From the NCBI GenBank assembly GCA_051047955.1, contig JBPGPT010000012.1, forward strand, positions 434,001 to 498,000: a stretch of 64,000 bases of DNA, written 5' to 3'. The translations under genes were made by a program, and so were the position numbers. Below the pieces are notes generated by a model. It did not search any database, was not told the origin of the DNA, and saw nothing but the letters and a program-made list of their open reading frames with translations. Of this stretch, positions 11,628-29,395 are shown piece after piece; within the stretch, counting starts at the first letter, position 1, and the number at the start of each line of letters is the position of its first letter. Source of the DNA: Cystobasidiomycetes sp. EMM_F5 (lineage: Eukaryota).

Positions 11628-13966
<2,339 letters not shown>

Positions 13967-15362: not shown

Positions 15363-17959
15363 ATGCATCCTCCGGCTCCGTCGTCCTCAAACGGTGGTCA
15401 TGCCTTGGATGGCAATGGTATGAGCACTACAAACGGCGCCAGTACTTCTGCAACGGCATCATCCTCCAGGATCCATACCAATGGTCATGGTGGATTGACA
15501 GGCTTGAACTCCGGCGCTCTGGGCGATGGAAACGCCTCCAGCTCAAGCTCCAGCAGTCAGTACGGCTCGACGCTGGCTGGCCCATCCCGGTCAGGATTCA
15601 TCTATCCTGGAAGCCAGATTGACCGCGAAGAGCTCGTACGCCTGACTCTGCAGTGCTTGAATGATATTGGCTATTCGTAAGTTTCCGCTGTATTAAGCTT
15701 GTTGGCTCGGGCGGATGTCGGCTTCCGATCGTCACTTCGATACTGCAAGACCTTGTGAGAGACGAGGCGAACTGACTGAAATACTTGCATTGTATATATA
15801 TTCGCAGACATGCGGCCTCCGCTCTGAGCAAAGAGTCGGGCTATAGCTTAGAACCGCCAGCAATCACCGCATTTCGGAATGGCATACTCGAAGGCAAATG
15901 GGAGACAGTATCGCGTTTACTACACGACGAGGATATCGTTCAGGGCGATGCGCTATCCGTACGCACTCTCTAGCATGAATCTTAAGCTATCCTTGACTTG
16001 ATGCACCATCAGACCGTCCGCTTCTTGATTGCTGAACAGAGATTCTTGGAAAATCTAGAAGCGAGATCTACGAAGAAGGCTCTGACGATACTGCGCAACG
16101 AGCTTGCGGTTCTCAATCGTGATCCTGAGCGATTACATCAGTTGTCAAGGTGAGTGGCGCCGATGTATACGGAACACGAAATAGTCATCTGATCAATTTC
16201 AATGGATTTCAGCTTTATGATGTGCGCTGGGCCAGCGGAGTTGCGTGAGCGTTCAGGATGGTCTGGAGCGGGCGATGCATCTCGGAGGTCGCTCTTACAG
16301 GCACTACAACGTTAGTCCCTGATGTTCTTCCAGACAAAGTTTCCGCTTCTGTACCTGATCCGTCCATCCACAGAACACATCCCGTCTGGTGTCATGATAC
16401 CTCAACGCCGTTTAGAGGCACTGCTCGAACAAGCGAAGGAACTGCAACGTACGAAGTGCCGTTATCACGCTTCCGATCCTCCGATATCGCTGTATGCAGA
16501 TCACGTTTGCGACAAGAGTGTGTTTCCTAGTCAGACTACACATATCCTAGGTGGGCACGAAGACCAGGTGTGGCGTGTACAATTCTCGCATAGTGGGCGG
16601 TATCTCGCAACCACGAGTAAAGATGGGACGGCCCTCGTTTGGCAGGTCGTGGTGAGCGATACTCCCAAGCGGTATCTCGCCCAAGCTGATTTGATTTTTC
16701 TTGTATGACAGAATGGCTTCACTCTGCTACATACCCTGCACCCAGCTGAACATATGGAGCAAATATGCGCGATATCCTGGTCGCCGGATGACACGACCCT
16801 TCTCTTTGGAGTGGAACATGCTATCAAGATTTACGATATTGCGGTAAGTATTGCGCTGCAATAACTGTGTACATCGATACTGAGATGCATCCTTTTGACA
16901 CCGTATAGTCTGGGCTTTGCAAGCTCAGCACTATAGGACACTCTAACCACGCCGTAGGAGGTCTAGCGTGGCAACCGGACTCCAAAGGCTTCTTCTCTGC
17001 CGGTCTTGACGGCCAAATACTATGCTGGGTGAGTTGAAATACCTTGGACAACAATAGATGCCGTTAGCTAACGCAAATGCAATTTTCAGGATCTGGAAGG
17101 GAATGCTGTGTACGGCTTCAAGACGTACCCGTATCGCCTGGTGGATTTAGCGATTGCGGCCGATGGATCGCGGATCGTTGCATTAGGCGAGCAGACGGAA
17201 GTGCATCGTTCACCAAGTTCGGTGACGCCGGCCAATGGTACTCATGACACACGGCATGGCATTTTTGAAGTCAAAGAACGCCGAGTGATCATTTTCAACC
17301 TTCATGAACGCCGACAAGAAAGGTGCGACGGTCGTCTCAGCTTGAGCGCAGTAGATGGCTGACATGATAAATCCAATGCAGGAGCTTGCCCCACACGGCG
17401 CAGTTAACAAGTGTCATGTTTGCTCCCGGAGATTCTCGCTACGTTATCATTAACCAGGCGCCAAATGTGAGTTAGTCATATGTTTGTGTACCAAATTGCT
17501 GAAGAGTCATGTCGGTCTCAGGAGGTTCTCCTATACGATATAATAGAAGGCGTGGTCGTGAAGCGGTATAGAGGCCAGCAGCAAGGAGTCGACTTCATCC
17601 GTAGCACTTTTGGAGGTCCTTCTAGAGGTTTCATCATCAGTGGCAGTGAAGGTTAGTGTTGATCATTCTTGGTTTGAGTATCACCATGCTGACCCATGCC
17701 CACAATGAATTGTAGACTCGACTATCTATGTCTGGCACAAGGACCATACAGAGCCCTTAGAGTGTCTTCAAGGCCATGCTGGAGGTAGTGTCAATGATAT
17801 CTCGTGGAATACTGCGCATCCGGGCATGTTTGCGAGTGCTGGAGGTAGGCGGTGTGCATTGGCGACAACAAACGTCTAGACTGATAAGCTTCTGCAACAG
17901 ATGACAAGACGGTCCGCATATGGCAAGCGCCAGCAACGTCCGGCCAGCCTGCAGAATGA
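15363..17959 (+). CDS. GID7: LisH/CTLH-WD40 protein, GID/CTLH E3 ligase subunit Gid7/WDR26 (start may be CUG at 15081)
   Basis: DREELVRLTLQCLNDIGY (LisH), FRNGILEGKW (CTLH), IPQRRLEALLEQA, SLYADHVCDKSVFPSQTTHILGGHEDQVW, several WD repeats, FIRSTFGG, MFASAG.DKTVRIW. Stop 17957-17959. Confidence 0.9.
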
Positions 17960-18059
17960 TTTTTCGCTTTTCCACTCTATTCAAGCAAGTCGTCCATCAA
18001 CCTGAATTATGTCAGCAATGTCATGTCGTTGTCCTATTCGTGTAGCCCTATAAATCCTC

Positions 18060-18500
18060 CTGGATGCCGAAACGCTAACCCTTATTCTCGAAAAGAGTCG
18101 ACCCTTGATACGCGACTTGCACAAGACAAGATTCGCAGAAAAGATATTGTATCTCCGCAGCAGAACGTCATTTCATTAGCATTGATGTGGCCATTATATA
18201 CAACGCATGACTCGACCGAAAGTAACATGAGCGCGCGGTCTAAACTACTCATACCGCGACTAGACCGCCTGCCCAGGGAGATGACGCAATGCGATTCGCA
18301 ATAACCCCTCGGAACCCCTATCTCTGCCCTAAACATCTTAGTATACTTGCACTATTGACTCTGCGTCAGTACGAGGTAGCGCCTTTGAGAAATGTTACTC
18401 ACTTCCGCCCCATTCCAGCACGCGGTAATTGCTTTCGTCGAAAGCCTGGTGCCGGAGGCCTACAATCGATGGCCATGACAACGCTGCCTCGCCCATGTCA
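18060..18500. repeat. Diverged direct repeat, copy 1 (partner ~19855-20300, offset ~1797 nt)
   Basis: Identical 19-mer ATCTTAGTATACTTGCACT at 18335 and 20132, with colinear shared blocks (GAAAAGAG, ACAAGAT.CGCA.AAAA, TGTATCTCC.CAGCA.AAC, CGAAAGTAAC, ACCGCCTG). Ends are approximate. Confidence 0.85.
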
Positions 18501-19840
18501 TCCCACTTCTCCCAGTCATCTGAAGCGATGCCCTTAAACAGCAGAAAGATGCGAGTAATGACGTCCGGCTGAGGTGCAATGTTCAATGCCGCAACAGCTT
18601 CCAGCTCGGATTGTGGAACGAATCGCATCGCAATTCTCTGTCCCTTCTCGTGCAATGCGGTGAAAGACGGCACCCAGTACTGCATCATGTCGGTAGCTGC
18701 TGTGTCGGAGAGCGAGAGATGGCGGAGAGCCACTTCGAGATACGGGAGCAGTCGGTCGTATGACAACAGAATGGAATTTGCTGGACTCATAGTAGACCCA
18801 CGAGGATCGAATCGCTCATCTGCAGCCCTCGGAAGGGTGGAATCTACATTTGAAGTAGCTTCCCAAAACAGCGAAGACACGCGCAATCCAGTATCGACCA
18901 TAGTCAACATTCCTCCCTTGAACGTTGAGGCAACATCTGCTGTCCAGGAGATGGCTTGACCTGCAGATGGAAGATTCAGGATCGCAGACGAAGGATAAAT
19001 GCCCGAGAATGACCAGCTCGACGCCAGTTCCAAGTTTATAGAAGCATTTTTGATCTGATGAGGAGAATAGAATAGAATGACTGGCTTTCCCCCGACCACC
19101 TTGACTATGCAATCTAGTTGGTCGTTATTGCTGATCTGCAATTAGTACGTCAGCAAAGGAGTCGGCTCTCCACCCAAAAAACATCGGGCATACACCATAA
19201 GACTCGATTTTACGGTCAGGGAGTAGACGTTGTCCATCGTATAGCAAGCCAAAACTCTCAGGGCAGAACCCTGCTCTGGCTGCTAGCGCATTGTAGATGT
19301 TTTGGACATGGCTGTCGGGATTCACAAGAAAATGTATTTCTGAAACGATATACAGATCGTGCTCAATGGATGTCATGAGTTCATCTTATCACGAGACGTA
19401 CCCTGCATGTCGTGCATCCTAACTTTCAAACCGATCTTCCCATCCGGAATAGCGCGCTCTGCAAGAGTAGGAGTAACTTCGGAGACCATCGGCAGAGGAG
19501 CCTCTTGTTGCATCCAGACAGAGTCGCGGTGCTGTATTTCCTCCCACGCTGCATCGTCTAATATGGCTAAGCGACCGATGGTCGGATCATCGAAAGACAA
19601 CCGCACTTTGGTTGCGCCATCCAGTCTATATGTCTTCCTGAACAAGTCATGAGCTTCAAGTAGGCTTTCAGGCTTTGTGGCTAGAGCTTTCATGTCATCT
19701 CCAGCAGAGCGAAGAACAATCAGAGTACGTTTCACAGCTTTCGTGCCGCTGACGCTACTGCCAGAAGATGAAGACGCTCTGTCAGCTGCATCAGGATACG
19801 GAGCATCCCGCGACCCTGCAGATCTGCGAGCAGGCGGCAT
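18338..19840 (-). CDS. SUMO-like domain (ends VGG) fused to an uncharacterised KPVI...EWGG domain; 4 exons
   Basis: ATG 19840; introns 19340-19401, 19136-19193, 18352-18402. Spliced product reads KIGLKVRMHDMQEIHFLV...LLYDGQRL...NNDQLDCIVKVVGG|KPVILFYSP...SLFWEA...DMMQYWVPSF...PQPDVITRIFLLFKG...RVLEWGGMQVY*. Confidence 0.8.
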
Positions 19841-20134
19841 GCTTGTCGGCGGCAGCCTGGAGTCCCTAAACCAGATGGTGTACCGGAAAAGAGGCAACCC
19901 CTGAAACGCGACTGCTACGAAACAAGATCCGCAAAAAAATTACTGTATCTCCACAGCAAAACACGATTTCCCGTGTATTGATGTAGCCATCTGCTTACAA
20001 TGCGTCGCACAGTCGAAAGTAACGTGATGGTCGAGTGTAGATTACTGATACCTGCACGCCTAAACCGCCTGTTGGACGAGACGCGCTGTAACAATCCCAT
20101 AGAACCCGAATTCCCCATCTCTGACATCAAGATC

Positions 20135-20295
20135 TTAGTATACTTGCACTTTGTGTCTGAGTCGTATGAGGTAAGGCCTGCGAAGAGTCTTACTCGTTTC
20201 CGCCCAATACCAGGACACGGTATACGCTTTCATAGAGAGCCTGGCGCCAGAGGCTCACCCTTGATGGCCAGGACATCGCTGTCTCGTCTGATACA
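20135..20295 (-). pseudogene. 3'-end relic of a further copy of the SUMO-like/KPVI-EWGG gene
   Basis: Translates AMSWPSRVSLWRQALYESVYRVLVLGG versus ALSWPSIVGLRHQAFDESNYRVLEWGG in the intact copy. EW is lost, the last-intron donor GTGAGT has become ACGAGT, and no upstream exons remain before the Fpg stop. Confidence 0.8.
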
Positions 20296-20351
20296 GGAGC
20301 CTTCGCTGCCTGTCTGAAGTTCCCGGCTCAAAAGCTTGCTTTCCTGTACCA

Positions 20352-21984
20352 TCAATTCGACCCTTCCACCTTTACAGTCGAGCGTCGCGATCTTCCCGAT
20401 GGCGATTCTGTCACTGACTCCGCCGGGGGGTCTTGAACCTCTTCAGCCTCTCCACCTTTTGCCTTTCTTGCAGACTTTCTCGGCGTTGTCTTTGTGGCTC
20501 TGCGCTTCTTGGCCGGCTTTTCGTCTTCCTCACTGTCATCTACCGGGGTCGAGACGCTCTCGTTATCAGACTCGGACTCTTCCTTCTTGTTACTCTTCTT
20601 GCGACTTGTAGATGCGCGTTTTGCCGGCGTAGCTCTTTTCGCTTTTGGCTTTATATTGCTTGAGCCAGGAGTGATGTCTTCCTGTTTGCGGTACCGCTTT
20701 TTTGGTGTCTCCGCTTCTAGCTCCTCTTCGCCTTCTTCGTCATCAACCGCGCTCGCTCCTTCTTCTCCATCACTCGCAGCTTCGCCTTGCAGTTGCTGCA
20801 CGATATCGACAATGGCGCTCGTCCTGCCTCCTACAGTCTGATGAGTCACTGTCGCTTCTCGTCCGTCCGGCAGTGTAAAAGTTCTCGGGTGCTGTCGACG
20901 CCCCTTGCCCCACCTGTAGTGGAAGAGCCAGGTCGCCGGAAACAGCTTATGTTCTGCGTTGACAGCCACTGCAGTGTTGACGATTGTCTTGATTTGCGTA
21001 TGGAGCGTGAGAAGCTGAGTCGCAGTAAGGGTATTTGACCGTTGTGCTGGATGAATGGCAGCTTGGAATAGCATCTCATCGACTAACCAATTCCCAATGC
21101 CGCATAATGGGCCATTCTGGTCCAGTAGAACTGCTTTTATGGGGGCTTTCCGCTTGTTGAGAGGTACGGACAGCTCCTCCAGCGTGGGCATGTCGAGGTA
21201 TCTGCAAAAGCGCTACATGAGCTTGTTGCACTGAACGGAGAGGCGCAAGCAGGCTTACGGATCTCTCCCGAGTTTGCTGAGCGGCTCAACTTCGGTTATA
21301 TCCTTGTCGCCGGATTGTACCAAACGTATGCGACCTAGCCGTCGCGAATCGCAAAAGCACCATTGTTCTCCGTCATCCATTGTCAGAGCAAACTTCCAGT
21401 ATCGCAGAGGCCAGGTGGAGCCATCATCGTTGGCCCAATTCTTTGCTTTCTTGCGGTAGAATAGTGGTTCTTTGCCTTTTGTAGAGACAAATCCAGCCAT
21501 GCCTGCATATTACCCGTCAGCTGGCGCGTATATACTCGACAAGTATTATAGTGAACATGTACCCAGGTGCAGGAGGATATGAGGAGAACTCTGCATGACA
21601 AGCTGAGGTCATCACTAGAATATCAGTGTACGATGAATGAAGGAGTATCGCTGAGCTCACATAAAAATATTTCCCTAGTCGGCCAACCCTTTGCACCCTC
21701 CTGCCTTTGATCGCTTTGGCGAAGTCATCATGCTCGACGCCGAGATACACAATCTTATCCTCGCGAGTGATGATATCCTTTACAATCTTGCCTTCGGTCG
21801 CCCTGCATTTCACGATGTCCAAATTAGTGTTGATGTCATCGGAGAAAGGCAGCAAGGCAAGCGCGACCAACGCGGCACAATCAAGTCTTGCTCGCTCGAC
21901 CTCTGTGTTTCAAGGTAAGTGGCAGGGTTTCATTAGTGCTAACGGAATCGTAAAGAATATGCACACACCAGCGAGTTCTGGCAT
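20352..21984 (-). CDS. FPG1: Formamidopyrimidine-DNA glycosylase (plant/fungal Fpg/MutM type) with a charged tail
   Basis: MPELA/EVERAR catalytic N-terminus, GRLGKYFY, DSRRLGRIRL, LGRDP, PIKAVLLDQ..GIGNWLVDEMLFQAAIHP (H2TH), WLFHYRWGK, TVGGRTSA. Confidence 0.93.
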
Positions 21985-22780
21985 CGTGTGTCGAATCGGG
22001 CGACTGAAGCAGTGCTGGAGGTAGCTTGTCAAACGGGCAGATACAAGACAGTGTTGTGTATCTTCAAGTCGTCAGCTGTACAGTAGTATTAAATGAAAAA
22101 CAACCACTTTCGATGCCAATCTTGTTTTGCAGCAGTCATGTCGCCACCCAAATCCTCTATTAAACCGCCTGGGAGCTCATTAAACCGTGCTTTATTTCAG
22201 TTGAGATACAAGCAATTCAGTGCCCGCCTTGAAGCTTCGCAGCCTGCTGTTGTGCTAGCCATAATTCTACATGTCTCACGTTGCCCGTCGGCGATAAAGC
22301 CATGCAACTGCCCGGTGTTCCCTTTTCTGGACTGCAACTTATGCTCCAGACCAATTCTGCGAGCCATATTCTGTCAAAGTAGAGGGCGTCAAAGGCCTCT
22401 GGGAAAGTGAGACGGCCAGTGCTGGCTGGGTGCCGCTCGAGCCGGGTTCATACATGCCTTGAGGTCTGGAACGGACAGCGGCAATCCTCGACCGAGAACA
22501 GCTTGGAACTTAGACAGAATACATACGAGAGACTCAACCTGGAAAGCCATCCTGGCTTCGAATCATCACCGCTTCTGCACCGCCAATTGAGCCGGTTCAA
22601 CGTCAGCTTCCTTGTTGCGGTAAACGGACAAGACCGACGGGCAGGACTGGAATAAATCGAGACGCATTGAACTTCGGTTGATGCGTCGTAAACACTTATC
22701 TTGCATCTCAAAGCTCGGCGTACTCCGTATCTGCTCGTACTGCGCGTGACAACCAGATCGTACGTGCAAACAAACAGACA

Positions 22781-24195
22781 ATGCCGACGCAGTTGCAGCC
22801 TTTGGAGATTACTGGTAGCGCGCGATCTCCGGCCAACTCTGCACTCGGTCTCGGATCATCGCACCCTCTACGAAGTCCATACTACAAGTTTGACTATACG
22901 ACCTATGGTCAGCTTGCGGATGGTGGTGGTGCTCGAAGCGGTAGCAGCTCTGCAGCGGGAGACAGGCAACGCAAGTCTGCGCCCAGGAGGACCGTTGAGA
23001 GGGTAGTACACGAGCGCGCCCCTGCTCTTGCGACCCTCGTAGCTGGGCATGGTGACGGTGGATTGAAGCAGGCAGCCAAAGACGTCAGAGACCGGGCTAT
23101 CAATGCTGCTGCAAAAGGCAAAGCCAACAGAAACGGCAAGCGTTACTCTACACAAGAGATTAATCACCTCGTGCCAGACGAGACGGGCGTACTGCACGAT
23201 CCCGAATACGAAAGCTTTCGCATCATCCAGCCATCGGCACAAAACTCGCAATATTCTGGATCTGTGAATGGTCATGCCGATGACGACGAGCACAGTCAAA
23301 GTGCGAGTAGCAGCGATACGGAAGAAGACGAGGAAGCAGCGACTGCGAGACAACGCCAAGCTGAACTCATGAATGGCAAAACGTCATTGCCAGCGTCACA
23401 GCTCGCAAAACGGCCAGGGGTAGGAAGCCGGCATGGGACAGACCCCACTTCACCGCGGCCTAGCAGGTCATACAGAGTTACTACAGCATCGAACGGCACA
23501 TCGTTCAGGAATACCCCATCCCATCCCCACACCTCCGGATTGGGAGCACTTGTCTCCGCTAATCGATCTACGACACCGTCGATACGAAGTCAATCCTCGG
23601 GCTCAGATCAAGCGAGTAGGCTTGGACCTAGGTCAGGTAATGGGGTGACATACCTCGCGCCATCTATCACTATGCCTCCTGCAGCATCATCATACCAAAG
23701 TATTGCGACAATTCAAGCGCAGGCATACAATCCCGTACGTGACGATCATACCTCATTCGAGTCTAGATTGGCGGTTACTAATGTACTATCTGACAGTACA
23801 CATACGTCCCTACCACATCTACCGCTGCAGAAGCATACTCGCATTCTACAAAATTGCCATTTGTAGGCTCTCACGCTTCCCGAAGGCATGTTGCATTCGC
23901 TGCTCCCATGCCGGGCTCGCGGCCTGTAGCGCACACACAAACGCAATCGTCTGCCGCATCGCTTTATCCGGCCAGTACGACAACTGCTGGAACTCTGGGT
24001 TCCATGACGGAAGGATCGGACGTTGCACCACCGATAGCTTGGAAATCCGGCTTCACTCCCTCGGCCGAACATCCCGAACGGCATCGGACGCGCCAGCACG
24101 AGGAAGGTGCCGCAATGGCCATCAAGCGATCGTTCCAGGCGGCCAAACTTGACGTGTCATTCGGTCTCTTGCGACTCGGTAACAAGAAGCGATAA
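22781..24195 (+). CDS. Hypothetical low-complexity Ser/Arg-rich protein (2 exons)
   Basis: A 361-aa ORF with DETGVLHDPEY plus a second ORF to 24195, joinable through an intron at ~23783-23867. No family recognised. Confidence 0.55.
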
Positions 24196-27768: not shown

Positions 27769-29395
27769 ATGATCAACACAACCAATCAAGGGGGAGATCA
27801 AACACACGCCGATGCTGCTGCAGGCTCATCGCAATCGCAAGCGATCGGTCCCCTTATCCGTCTCAAACGTTACAGACAGTCTTGCGATGCTGTGTGGATC
27901 ACAAAGCCGAACAGTGTGCATCAGCTAGCACTGATTCATGCTGCATACTTTGAAACGTCATCGGAAAAAATGCACAATTCGTGTATGTTATGGACACTGG
28001 GATCGAACGGGAGTGCTGCAACGATTGGCCTGAAGTCTTGAACGTTGCGACTGTTTTCGCCGTCCCGTCACCAAGGGTCTCCTGGGGTCAAACATCTCCC
28101 GTTTCAGAGGAATTACCCCACCCTCAAAGCTCCTTGTTGTACTTTCGTACCGGTTCAGGTTCGGGTTCGGAAACAGCTTCAGCCTCACACGTCAGTGCAA
28201 GACGTCAACCTACGTCAATGGATGTACCCGTTGTCCTGCAAGGTGAGCTACACTTGTGGGGCGTAATTAAGGAACCCTGCTCACAGATCGATGTCCATCA
28301 GCCGGCGTGAGGGTCACGATCCCCCTCCCGCAGACAGCTACTGCAGACACGCTCCTCAGAGCGTTATTCGAGCGTGGGATAGTCATTTCACCCGATCGAA
28401 TGTACCTGCGCGGATCGCCTTTGCCTGTCGAGCCCTCGTTGAGTTTGGCCAATCTTCGTGTAAGCAATGCATGTAGATTGCTTGAGCAACTTTCTAACCT
28501 TACACGGTAGATCTGGGAGGTAATCGAAGTCAGCCCTGGTAGCGTCCTGACACCGGTATCCAACTTTGCGTCTACCTCAGCCACCGTTCCAATCGTTCCC
28601 ACACAGCCTCAGCAGCCCTCAAGGCCGCCTCGAACTTCTCGGGTACCGCCTGGGACCAGGAAGCCAGTCATCTTATTCTATTCCCCCTGGCTGTCCCAGA
28701 CGTTGTGCTGAAGCTCACAACACTGCCTAGCGACAGATTCACCGTAATCTATCCGAAGCCTGACGTACTGGCAGTTCTGGCAACGGATCAGCAGGGGCTT
28801 GTATGGCAGTGCAATGTGCTGCCCGTCTCGCAGGGAGGCCTCCTCGGTGTTGCAGGTACAAAGGTCTCTTCGCTGTTTTGGGAGAGCGAGTCTGTCACTT
28901 CCGCCATTAGCTTGCCAGATGCAGTCAACGCAAGCAATTCTGTCCTACTTTCGTTCGAAAACGTGCTCCCTTATCTGGAGCGGGTACTGCGCTCACTTTC
29001 GATGACGGATACCGCCGCAACAGACTTTATGCAATACTGGATACCAAACTTCGTTCGTATTGCCGAAAAGGGACAGAAGATTGCTTTGCGATTTGTATCG
29101 CAGGATGAGATGGACAAGCACGTCTCGTTGGATATCTCGCCAGCTCCAGACGTCGTGAACCGCGTGTTCATGCTGTTCAGAGGCGTATCCGATACCGAAG
29201 CCCCCGCTTGGTCGACATCAAAGCGCATTGCAGAGCACGAGTGGCTCGATATCGCTGGAGTCAATAGTCTGGCCTTTGACAACAGCAAATATCGCGTGCT
29301 GGAGTGGGGTGGTTGTGAGTCGAAATCTGCAGAGGGCTGATTAACAGACAATCTGCTGATAAGGTTAACACCTTACAGCTCAAATTGATGAATGA
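27769..29395 (+). CDS. Paralog of the 18.3-19.8 kb gene: KPVI...EWGG domain with a degenerate Ubl-like segment and no di-Gly
   Basis: RKPVILFYSP...SSLFWES...ASNSVLLSFENVLPYLERVLRSLSMTDTAATDFMQYWIPNF..KGQKIALRFV..PAPDVVNRVFMLFRG..YRVLEWGG, closely matching the other copy. Introns 28243-28301, ~28460-28510, probably 29314-29378. The 5' frame join near 27960-28040 is uncertain. Confidence 0.75.

Follow-up and report, generated by a model that had tools for sequence, protein, structure and literature searches.

Natural linear fusions of ubiquitin-like domains (Ubls) to other proteins are few, comprising those with ribosomal proteins, polyubiquitin, FUBI-eS30, and, in plants, ubiquitin-NEDD8; each is informative on protease specificity and protein maturation. 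Known SUMO precursors have tails of only 2-11 residues, whereas the Ubls built into Rad23, parkin, and Rad60/Esc2/NIP45 have no boundary Gly-Gly and are not known to be processed; built-in Ubl domains normally lose the motif. Deubiquitinases recognise the tail Leu-Arg-Gly-Gly and SUMO proteases the tail Gln-Val-Gly-Gly, and Gln-x-Gly-Gly is the mark of SUMO. Pro is the one residue after Gly-Gly that blocks such proteases, and ubiquitin G76A is poorly cut. In FUBI-eS30 (FAU), a diverged Ubl with Gly-Gly stands before a functional protein and is removed by USP36 (PMC8354635, PMC10611586).

The protein described here is like FUBI-eS30, as portrayed in those accounts, in that a diverged Ubl ending in Gly-Gly is fused ahead of another protein; FUBI-eS30 is kept across holozoans and has its role in the maturation of ribosomes, whereas the present family is multi-copy, fast-evolving, patchy, and mainly found in Basidiomycota. 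With ubiquitin-eL40, ubiquitin-eS31, and polyubiquitin it shares a ubiquitin-fold unit whose Gly-Gly directly precedes another protein with no linker. Unlike in the ubiquitin-ribosomal fusions, however, the partner is an unannotated bacterial-type domain of 230 amino acids (here called X), an extra N-terminal domain lies ahead of a Ubl that has diverged strongly across the family, the Gly-Gly is absent in ~30% of members, and cleavage is predicted. The likeness to the SUMO/Smt3 precursors processed by Ulp/SENP lies in a homologue, P0008, whose Ubl is nearest to Smt3/SUMO, and in 15 relatives that end in Gln-Val-Gly-Gly, but the "tail" is in this case a folded domain of 230 amino acids, and the Ubl of the gene itself ties SUMO with ubiquitin.

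The gene lies in a window (the whole stretch of DNA that was analysed) of 64,000 nucleotides from Cystobasidiomycetes sp. EMM_F5. Its parts, together with two related sequences nearby, are as follows.

18395..19840, minus strand: whole coding region, three exons and two introns, stop included; 441 amino acids
19402..19840, minus strand: exon 1, which opens with the start codon and carries the N-terminal domain, the linker, and the initial strands of the Ubl
19340..19401, minus strand: intron 1, 62 nt, GTACGT...TTTCAG, backed by homology only
19194..19339, minus strand: exon 2, coding for the ubiquitin-fold core, with the Pfam and solved-structure sequence matches
19136..19193, minus strand: intron 2, 58 nt, GTATGC...TACTAAT..TGCAG, in which TACTAAT is a branch-like site
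18398..19135, minus strand: exon 3; the stop codon is at 18395-18397
19505..19735, minus strand: N-terminal conserved domain, about amino acids 36-112, by conservation with homologues
19088..19438, minus strand: ubiquitin/SUMO-like domain, amino acids 135-211, introns within the span, Gly-Gly at its end
19085..19093, minus strand: junction codons Gly-Gly-Lys, candidate cleavage site after the second Gly
18398..19087, minus strand: domain X, 230 amino acids, opening with Lys-Pro-Val-Ile and closing two residues after EWGG
28219..29340, plus strand: paralogue, with a Ubl-like exon, a Pro-rich linker of ~40 amino acids, and X (tblastn, 41.6% identity over 231 amino acids)
19880..20285, minus strand: decayed 3' relic that repeats the final ~70 coding bases of the gene and the flank downstream of them, aligning with 18080-18480

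The spliced coding sequence is 1326 nt with the stop, the frame is open across all three exons, and the splice sites are canonical. The predicted two-intron model is backed solely by alignment with full-length homologues, which is colinear and gap-free at both exon junctions; the Met-Pro start is common to the window protein and its homologues. The fusion itself is independent of the intron calls because its junction lies inside exon 3, where the Gly-Gly (19088-19093) and the Lys directly after it (19085-19087; linker length zero) place Ubl and X side by side in one reading frame, and the idea that the two are separate genes was ruled out for the same reason. In the alignment with homologues, the Gly-Gly falls five residues past the last Ubl strand. 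An earlier note on this DNA had described a Ubl with an intact Gly-Gly fused without a linker to an uncharacterised domain, and the spliced 441-amino-acid product confirmed it; the two canonical introns and the Ubl peptide quoted there were recovered in the spliced model, and the motifs named for the C-terminal KPVI...EWGG domain of ~230 amino acids are all present and correspond to the conserved alignment columns of a genuine family. The architecture is an N-terminal domain, a disordered linker, a ubiquitin-fold domain ending in Gly-Gly, and domain X, in an unannotated eukaryotic family.

The family turns over close to the gene. The paralogue, 9 kb away, has no Gly-Gly, and its reading frame is broken just past the Lys-Pro-Val-Ile start; the decayed copy adjoins the gene on its upstream side (tblastn, 61% identity over 31 amino acids) and was seen in gapped alignment only, a gapless repeat search of positions 16000-23000 having returned no repeat. 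Such turnover speaks for a locus that is itself non-functional or mis-modelled, i.e., a paralogue in decay or a by-product of intron guessing, encoding nothing meaningful, but we judge this extremely improbable, given the frame open through three exons, the canonical splice sites, the colinear homologues, the presence of every family-invariant residue in the window X, and the AlphaFold2 model of that domain (pLDDT 93.1, pTM 0.89). The window gene is an intact three-exon basidiomycete gene, its source probably belonging to Pucciniomycotina.

The product of exon 2 matched both Pfam Rad60-SLD (PF11976; 30.5 bits, E 3.2e-7, cut-off 23.8) and Pfam ubiquitin (PF00240; 29.6 bits, E 5.7e-7, cut-off 25.4), and scores above the curated thresholds place the window Ubl, by sequence, in the ubiquitin-fold superfamily. 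Compared with sequences of solved structures, it matched ubiquitin at E 0.03-0.04 and SUMO1 at E 0.07-0.3. Its tail, Lys-Val-Val-Gly-Gly, fits the type of neither ubiquitin nor SUMO, Gln-x-Gly-Gly being absent, and its closest family members are mostly of the Rad60-SLD type, at no more than 35% identity. In the structure model of the P0008 homologue, the Ubl is a true beta-grasp whose best matches are Smt3/SUMO (Z 13.4-13.9, 29-35% identity), the top ones having an rmsd of 1.0-1.1 over 73-76 residues; the match to 1euv_B, the Ulp1-Smt3 entry, has Z 13.4 and an rmsd of 2.1 over 79 residues. The "SUMO-like" of the earlier note thus holds for P0008 and is only partly supported for the window copy, in which SUMO and ubiquitin tie in Pfam and the tail is Val-Val-Gly-Gly.

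Among 76 relatives, the Ubl was best matched by Pfam ubiquitin in 33 and by Rad60-SLD in 15, and the remaining 28 had no match; the range runs from near-canonical ubiquitin (90.8 bits) through SUMO-like to sequences unrecognisable to Pfam. Some relatives have near-canonical ubiquitin with a Leu-Arg-Leu-Arg-Gly-Gly tail, the P0014 homologue has three ubiquitin stretches ahead of X, and Gln-Val-Gly-Gly tails are also found on Ubls best matched by ubiquitin. Separate fusions of X to ubiquitin and to SUMO were considered from 7-8 label changes on the X tree, but Pfam labels are noisy for diverged Ubls and the idea was rejected.

The Gly-Gly and the junction outlast this drift of Ubl sequence. Gly-Gly is found directly before Lys-Pro in 72/103 eukaryotic X domains, a count that covers only listed family members and a sampling tilted to Ubl-bearing proteins because the search profile included Ubl columns. 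In an alignment of 86 rows, the junction residues are conserved at 68/86 (Gly), 62/86 (Gly), and 83/86 (Lys); the two Gly rank first and fourth among Ubl columns, structural glycines stand at 67/86 and 63/86, and the other Ubl columns are poorly conserved. The canonical tail length was found in 53/57 rows with Gly-Gly versus 16/29 without, and tail indels in 4/57 versus 13/29; constraint on the tail thus seems to lapse once Gly-Gly is lost. Leu-Arg-Gly-Gly and Gln-Val-Gly-Gly tails each occur 15 times.

With moderate confidence, we favor the window protein being a linear Ubl-fusion precursor. It would be made as one chain and cut after Gly-Gly by a deubiquitinase or a protease of the Ulp/SENP type, in the way known for ubiquitin-ribosomal fusions, FUBI-eS30, and SUMO precursors. 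The products would be the N-terminal domain plus Ubl with a Gly-Gly end, and a free X with Lys as its first residue; the Ubl would be a removable N-terminal module that aids the folding or expression of X or sets its half-life. Arguing for this are the prevalence of Gly-Gly before X, its columns being among the best kept in an otherwise poorly conserved Ubl, the persistence of the junction through Ubl drift, the steadier tail length of rows with Gly-Gly, the protease-type tails, the three ubiquitins before X in P0014, the true beta-grasp of P0008 nearest to Smt3/SUMO, and the residue after Gly-Gly, which is Lys and not Pro. Arguing against it, Gly-Gly is far less well kept than the Lys-Pro start of X (108/109), at least 18 independent Gly-Gly losses were counted on an X-domain tree of 87 rows (58 with Gly-Gly and 29 without), and five relatives have Gly-Ala in its place, which, if it behaves like ubiquitin G76A, would be a poor protease substrate.

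Those losses, and the 31/103 members (~30%) that have no Gly-Gly and nonetheless retain a Ubl and an intact X, also speak for the main rival, namely that the Ubl is built in and stays uncut, acting in cis. The Ubl could partner X structurally, or be a docking point by which, for example, the proteasome, a shuttle factor, or a SUMO-interacting motif takes hold of the protein; the Gly-Gly would then survive because a tight junction requires its geometry, or because gene conversion by ubiquitin genes restores it. As in Rad23, parkin, and Rad60/Esc2/NIP45, a ubiquitin- or SUMO-like fold lies inside a larger protein, and the Rad60-SLD model matches it. The exact tail length of 16 of the 29 rows without Gly-Gly is in keeping with a built-in Ubl, and close X sisters (e.g., P0196 and P0184) differ in Ubl flavour, which fits exchange with ubiquitin genes. 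The junction of P0008 is confidently modelled (block pLDDT 86-91), with residues 189-190 in a beta-bridge, and on that model could be rigid and built-in. Unlike in Rad23, parkin, and Rad60, however, Gly-Gly sits exactly at the domain boundary in 72/103 members; it is also among the best-kept Ubl columns even though 28/76 Ubls escape Pfam, tail indels are concentrated in the rows that have lost it, and many of the tails are exact protease-recognition tails. We therefore regard a built-in, uncut Ubl as possible but somewhat doubtful. The earlier note had staked its proposal on conservation of Gly-Gly in orthologs, and the outcome is divided: the motif is kept in most of the family, but of the four closest copies only the window gene and P0056 have it, whereas P0057 (Ser-Gly) and the in-window paralogue do not. 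X evidently persists without a cleavable junction.

Cleavage of the favored precursor would free a Gly-Gly terminus, and the N-terminal domain plus Ubl might then be activated and conjugated to targets, like ISG15 or FAT10, as a large tandem modifier, with X as only the precursor tail or a co-released partner. In the structure model of P0008, the elements of the N-terminal domain are ordered strand-strand-helix-strand-helix-strand, which is beta-grasp-like, and linear di- and tri-ubiquitin chains align across both domains from model residues 15/16 to 185/187 (139-143 residues, at high rmsd); the domain is possibly a second beta-grasp. It has no match in Pfam, however, and hhalign of the domain against the Ubl gave a probability of 0.4%, i.e., no sequence link. 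In addition, the Ubls of the family differ too much in sequence for a single activating enzyme to serve them all, the strongly conserved part of the protein is X and not the Ubl, and the window tail lacks both the Arg seen in ubiquitin and the Gln seen in SUMO. A new modifier is consequently very unlikely.

Domain X, whether from the window or from its bacterial and fungal relatives, had no match in Pfam, NCBIfam, PADLOC, or PHROGs. It is confidently predicted from the model to be a folded beta-sandwich with inserted helices, of bacterial type. Foldseek against the PDB gave no match at E <= 0.001 (best E 0.16), the C-terminal half being barely probed by fold searches, and VIA-align placed 0/48161 chains at Z >= 5, the best being YcnI (Z 3.9, rmsd 3.0, 94 residues). 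The best ESM Atlas matches were unnamed bacterial clusters of 180-197 amino acids (score 0.92); when the search was confined to named clusters, the top one was from Basidiomycota (265 amino acids, score 0.86) and may consist of X-only or truncated gene models. At its conserved positions X has mainly aromatic or hydrophobic residues, together with Lys1, Glu76, Arg179, and Glu225, and the family alignment contains no conserved Cys, His, or Ser; this favors, weakly, X being a binding module rather than a hydrolase. A pilin-like intramolecular link between Lys1 and Glu225 was considered and rejected, pilin matches reaching only Z ~3.

For the C-terminal domain, 54 longer homologues were identified, the strongest at E 5e-47. 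The eukaryotic X family is mostly from Basidiomycota, the named matches outside that phylum being a single ascomycete and a single green alga, and it is tandemly duplicated; a wide search with a profile of 451 positions that included the Ubl returned 43568 matches swamped by polyubiquitins and is no measure of the spread of X. In bacteria, X was found at 28 loci, in Flavobacteriales, Saprospiraceae, Myxococcota, Bdellovibrionales, candidate-phyla bacteria, and Spirochaetes. The statement in the earlier note that similar domains occur in bacterial proteins and in ubiquitin-fused basidiomycete proteins was therefore correct. Bacterial X starts at the same Lys-Pro, ends at the same EWGG, and shares its conserved columns with eukaryotic X. 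Judged by eye, it usually lies behind signal-peptide or lipoprotein-like N-termini; the domains upstream vary, with one weak CarboxypepD_reg-like match and, again by eye, ankyrin repeats. Tandem X arrays of 2-7 copies are present at 16/28 loci, including in Bacteroidota, and Pfam annotation of 52 neighbouring ORFs revealed no recurrent partner except paralogues.

None of the 28 bacterial loci has a Gly-Gly or a Ubl before the Lys of X, yet the Lys-Pro start is kept and the Lys is invariant. The Lys is thus a feature of X itself, not one selected as an N-degron, and its invariance provides no evidence for a neo-N-terminus, contrary to the significance that the earlier note had attached to it. 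This bears on a more elaborate proposal, in which a cut by a deubiquitinase or Ulp would expose Lys as a type-1 Arg/N-degron, X would be constitutively short-lived and build up only under perturbation of the ubiquitin system, X would have been acquired from secreted bacterial proteins, paralogues without Gly-Gly would use ubiquitin-fusion degradation, and the N-terminal beta-grasp plus Ubl-Gly-Gly would form a conjugatable tandem modifier. As a whole, we consider that proposal unlikely. If its N-degron part were true, this would be the first natural family with an N-degron made by Ubl removal, resembling the laboratory ubiquitin-fusion technique, and would link fast-evolving, tandemly duplicated genes to proteolysis sensing.

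A search of the full-text literature, whose coverage excludes most subscription journals, found no paper on the family. If the precursor reading is true, the family would be a different kind of natural Ubl fusion, multi-copy and fast-evolving, with a Ubl that ranges from ubiquitin- to SUMO-like, and with a partner that is well folded, comes from an unnamed family with no convincing solved relative, and has a bacterial extracytoplasmic counterpart. Should the cut occur, the product would start with Lys, and control of a natural substrate by N-degron or ubiquitin-fusion degradation would be directly testable; even without a cut, X, which occurs in many Basidiomycota and as tandem arrays in Bacteroidota, lends itself well to being defined as a family and solved structurally. 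One homologue, P0059, has the appearance of a three-unit polyprotein, but a Met-Pro start-like motif reopens each unit, and it is more likely to be three tandem genes merged by gene prediction.

The window carries a gene of an established kind, a ubiquitin-fold (Ubl) fusion, in which the partner domain, here called X, and the three-part architecture are without description in the open-access papers and preprints searched. The region 18300-19960 was read in reverse and its exons were joined by script, yielding a spliced product of 441 amino acids:

19840-19402, minus: exon 1
19401-19340, minus: intron 1, 62 nt, GTACGT...TTTCAG
19339-19194, minus: exon 2
19193-19136, minus: intron 2, 58 nt, GTATGC...TACTAAT..TGCAG
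19135-18398, minus: exon 3, with the stop codon at 18397-18395
about aa 36-112, minus: N-terminal domain, conserved in the family
aa 135-211, minus: Ubl, ending in Gly-Gly
aa 212-441 (18398-19087), minus: domain X, starting at the Lys after Gly-Gly

The peptide quoted in the earlier note is found exactly within this product, and the note's observation is confirmed; the sequence shows a gene built of three parts with a precise Gly-Gly/Lys junction. The Gly-Gly codons lie at 19093-19088, and Lys-Pro-Val-Ile follows directly from 19087. Because this junction is inside exon 3, the Ubl-X fusion is independent of the intron calls. The introns are putative and have homology as their support: when the spliced protein is aligned to full-length homologues, no gap falls at either exon junction, and a Met-Pro start is common to both.

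The window Ubl is, judged by its matches, a genuine but very diverged ubiquitin-fold domain. The exon-2 core alone exceeds the Pfam curated thresholds for both Rad60-SLD (30.5 bits) and ubiquitin (29.6 bits), and most of the nearest Ubls within the family, which share 35% identity at most, belong to the Rad60-SLD type. Against sequences of solved structures, mono-ubiquitin scores E 0.03-0.04 and SUMO1 E 0.07-0.3. The earlier interpretation stands in part: the gene model, the Ubl, the zero-linker junction, and the bacterial and basidiomycete relatives hold. "SUMO-like" is partly supported; it is not established for the window copy, which ubiquitin and Rad60-SLD both match. Across 76 family members, Pfam gives ubiquitin as best match in 33 and Rad60-SLD in 15, with 28 lacking any match.

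Since the window Ubl is split over three exons, the fold evidence comes from a full-length homologue, P0008 (Mycena belliarum, 435 aa), which was modeled in place of the window protein using an 86-row alignment (pLDDT 89.5, pTM 0.70). Residues 116-186 are predicted to form a textbook beta-grasp. Compared with 48161 representative chains, this domain matches Smt3/SUMO best (Z 13.5-13.9, rmsd 1.0-1.1, 73-76 residues, and 29-35% identity in the top rows); 1euv_B, from the Ulp1-Smt3 complex, is among these matches (Z 13.4, rmsd 2.1, 79 residues). Ubiquitin ranks next (Z about 11.8-12.5, 9-12% identity). The N-terminal domain is kept across the family but matches no Pfam model. Its elements, as predicted in P0008, run strand-strand-helix-strand-helix-strand, and linear di- and tri-ubiquitin chains align 139-143 residues across model residues 15/16 to 185/187; these hint that it may be a second beta-grasp, although profile-profile comparison with the Ubl gave a probability of only 0.4%.

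Domain X has no curated family and no convincing solved relative. Neither Pfam, NCBIfam, PADLOC, nor PHROGs gave a match. AlphaFold2 with a 55-row alignment (pLDDT 93.1, pTM 0.89) predicts an N-terminal half folded as a beta-sandwich, a pair of long helices, and then more strands, the last being the EWGG strand. Foldseek returned no solved structure at E <= 0.001, and in an exhaustive VIA-align pass 0 of 48161 chains attained Z 5; its best matches were generic sandwiches, led by YcnI (Z 3.9), with cohesins, pilins, and GPI-transamidase subunit T after it. Columns invariant in both eukaryotes and bacteria are Lys1, Pro2, Pro32, Trp48, Leu73, Leu117, Trp138, Pro140, Pro174, Arg179, Glu225, Trp226, and Gly227, with Glu76 and several aromatic residues near-invariant. 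No Cys, His, or Ser is conserved, which weakly suggests a binding module rather than a hydrolase.

X belongs to a family spread largely through Basidiomycota, and it has a bacterial counterpart. Searching for longer relatives of the exon-3 product gave 54 proteins (E 5e-47 to 1.8e-8), of which the named ones are almost all basidiomycete (Mycena, Suillus, Ganoderma, Rhodotorula, Phenoliferia, Tulasnella, Rhizoctonia, and others); the exceptions are one ascomycete, Apiospora arundinis, and one green alga, Edaphochlamys debaryana. Auricularia, Amanita, Tetrapyrgos, and Moniliophthora hold more members, and paralogues are frequently on one contig or have adjacent locus tags. Three database gene models join family members with each other or with neighboring genes: P0059 (1276 aa, three units), P0018 (1057 aa, with an eIF4A-like helicase), and P0024 (466 aa, with endonuclease V). 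They probably arose when gene prediction ran tandem or adjacent genes together. The eukaryotic samples are skewed to Ubl-bearing proteins, and the wide-search profile took in Ubl columns; a cluster in the ESM Atlas, made up of Basidiomycota proteins of 265 aa (score 0.86), may represent X without a Ubl, or truncated gene models.

Twenty-eight bacterial loci encode X, from Flavobacteriales/Crocinitomicaceae, Aureispira/Saprospiraceae, Myxococcota, Bdellovibrionales, candidate-phyla bacteria, and single MAGs labelled Clostridiales and Gammaproteobacteria. The Lys-Pro-Val/Ile start is kept in all 28, preceded by Asp, Glu, Arg, Lys, Gly, Phe, or Tyr; Gly-Gly precedes it in none (0/28). By eye, nearly all bacterial copies open with a putative signal peptide or lipoprotein signal. 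Tandem copies, 2-7 each, occur in 16 of the 28 loci; in Flavobacteriales-type MAGs (L002, L003, L008, L009, L010, and 11 more loci), X genes of ~330 aa stand head-to-tail as 2-7 paralogues, each with an N-terminus resembling a signal peptide. In a quick maximum-likelihood X tree, all 87 eukaryotic rows fall in a single clade, with nine chosen bacterial rows outside it (SH-aLRT 100), and the window X groups with P0056 and P0057, its nearest relatives (SH-aLRT 100). Ankyrin repeats and X appear to co-occur in two kingdoms: in the Edaphochlamys protein (P0054, 888 aa), ankyrin repeats confirmed by Pfam are followed by ubiquitin-Gly-Gly and then by X, and a spirochaete MAG protein (P0172, 1120 aa) has three X domains, each after a region that looks ankyrin-like by eye.

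Conservation of Gly-Gly was counted over 103 eukaryotic X domains matching from profile position 1, with seven partial matches set aside. Gly-Gly stands right before Lys in 72 of these, and Lys-Pro opens 108 of 109 X domains. In the 86-row alignment the two columns are Gly in 68 and 62 rows, ranking first and fourth within the Ubl and equalling its structural glycines (67 and 63), whereas in most of the Ubl columns no residue reaches a majority. Gly-Gly thus outlives the rest of the Ubl, as 28 of 76 Ubls escape Pfam while it persists. Tail length is canonical in 53/57 rows with Gly-Gly versus 16/29 without; Leu-Arg-Gly-Gly and Gln-Val-Gly-Gly tails number 15 each.

The best reading, which we put at about an even chance, is that the protein would be made as a linear Ubl-X precursor and cut after Gly-Gly by a deubiquitinase or an Ulp/SENP-type protease. 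Such proteases generally accept any residue after Gly-Gly except Pro; in the window gene it is Lys. Parallels are ubiquitin-ribosomal fusions, SUMO precursors, and FUBI-eS30 (PMC8354635, PMC10611586). The main rival, possible but somewhat doubtful, is a built-in Ubl that stays uncut. It accords with the 31/103 members lacking Gly-Gly (substitutes include Gly-Ala, 5; Phe-Ala, 4; Gly-Lys, 3; Gly-Asp, 3) and with at least 18 changes of state on the X tree (58 with, 29 without); one Suillus clade lost Gly-Gly as a block, and next to the window gene on the tree P0056 has Gly-Gly and P0057 Ser-Gly. The P0008 junction is also modeled confidently, with a beta-bridge at residues 189-190, and could be rigid and built-in. 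The high rank of the Gly-Gly columns and the mostly canonical tail length of rows that keep Gly-Gly argue for the cut precursor.

The Lys start is invariant in bacteria too and so was not selected as an N-degron, although it could have been co-opted as one. Ubiquitin fusions that cannot be cleaved are broken down through the ubiquitin-fusion-degradation route (PMC3507821), so junctions with or without Gly-Gly might both make X unstable, by N-degron or by that route; we consider this unlikely. That a released Ubl would be conjugated to targets as a modifier is very improbable.

Turnover of the family is evident in the neighborhood:

about 28219-29340, plus: second copy (paralogue), 41.6% identity over 231 aa
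19880-20285: decayed duplicate of the final ~70 coding bases of the gene and its downstream flank, resembling 18080-18480

In the paralogue a Ubl-like exon and an intron are followed by a ~40-residue Pro-rich linker where the Gly-Gly tail would be, and the frame is broken at a five-C run just past the Lys-Pro-Val-Ile start, which marks either a pseudogene or a mistake in the assembly. The decayed copy, roughly 70% identical with indels, looks like the relic of a lost tandem copy and lies between the window gene and an upstream minus-strand ORF (20352-21212) with a formamidopyrimidine-DNA glycosylase H2TH domain (Pfam E 2.3e-17) and a long Lys/Glu/Ser-rich tail. At 12017-13963, plus strand, is an intron-free 649-aa DED1/DDX3-type DEAD-box helicase that places the source among the basidiomycetes, probably as a yeast of the Pucciniomycotina: its top named relative is from Cystobasidium minutum (74% identity), followed by other Pucciniomycotina and Agaricomycotina.
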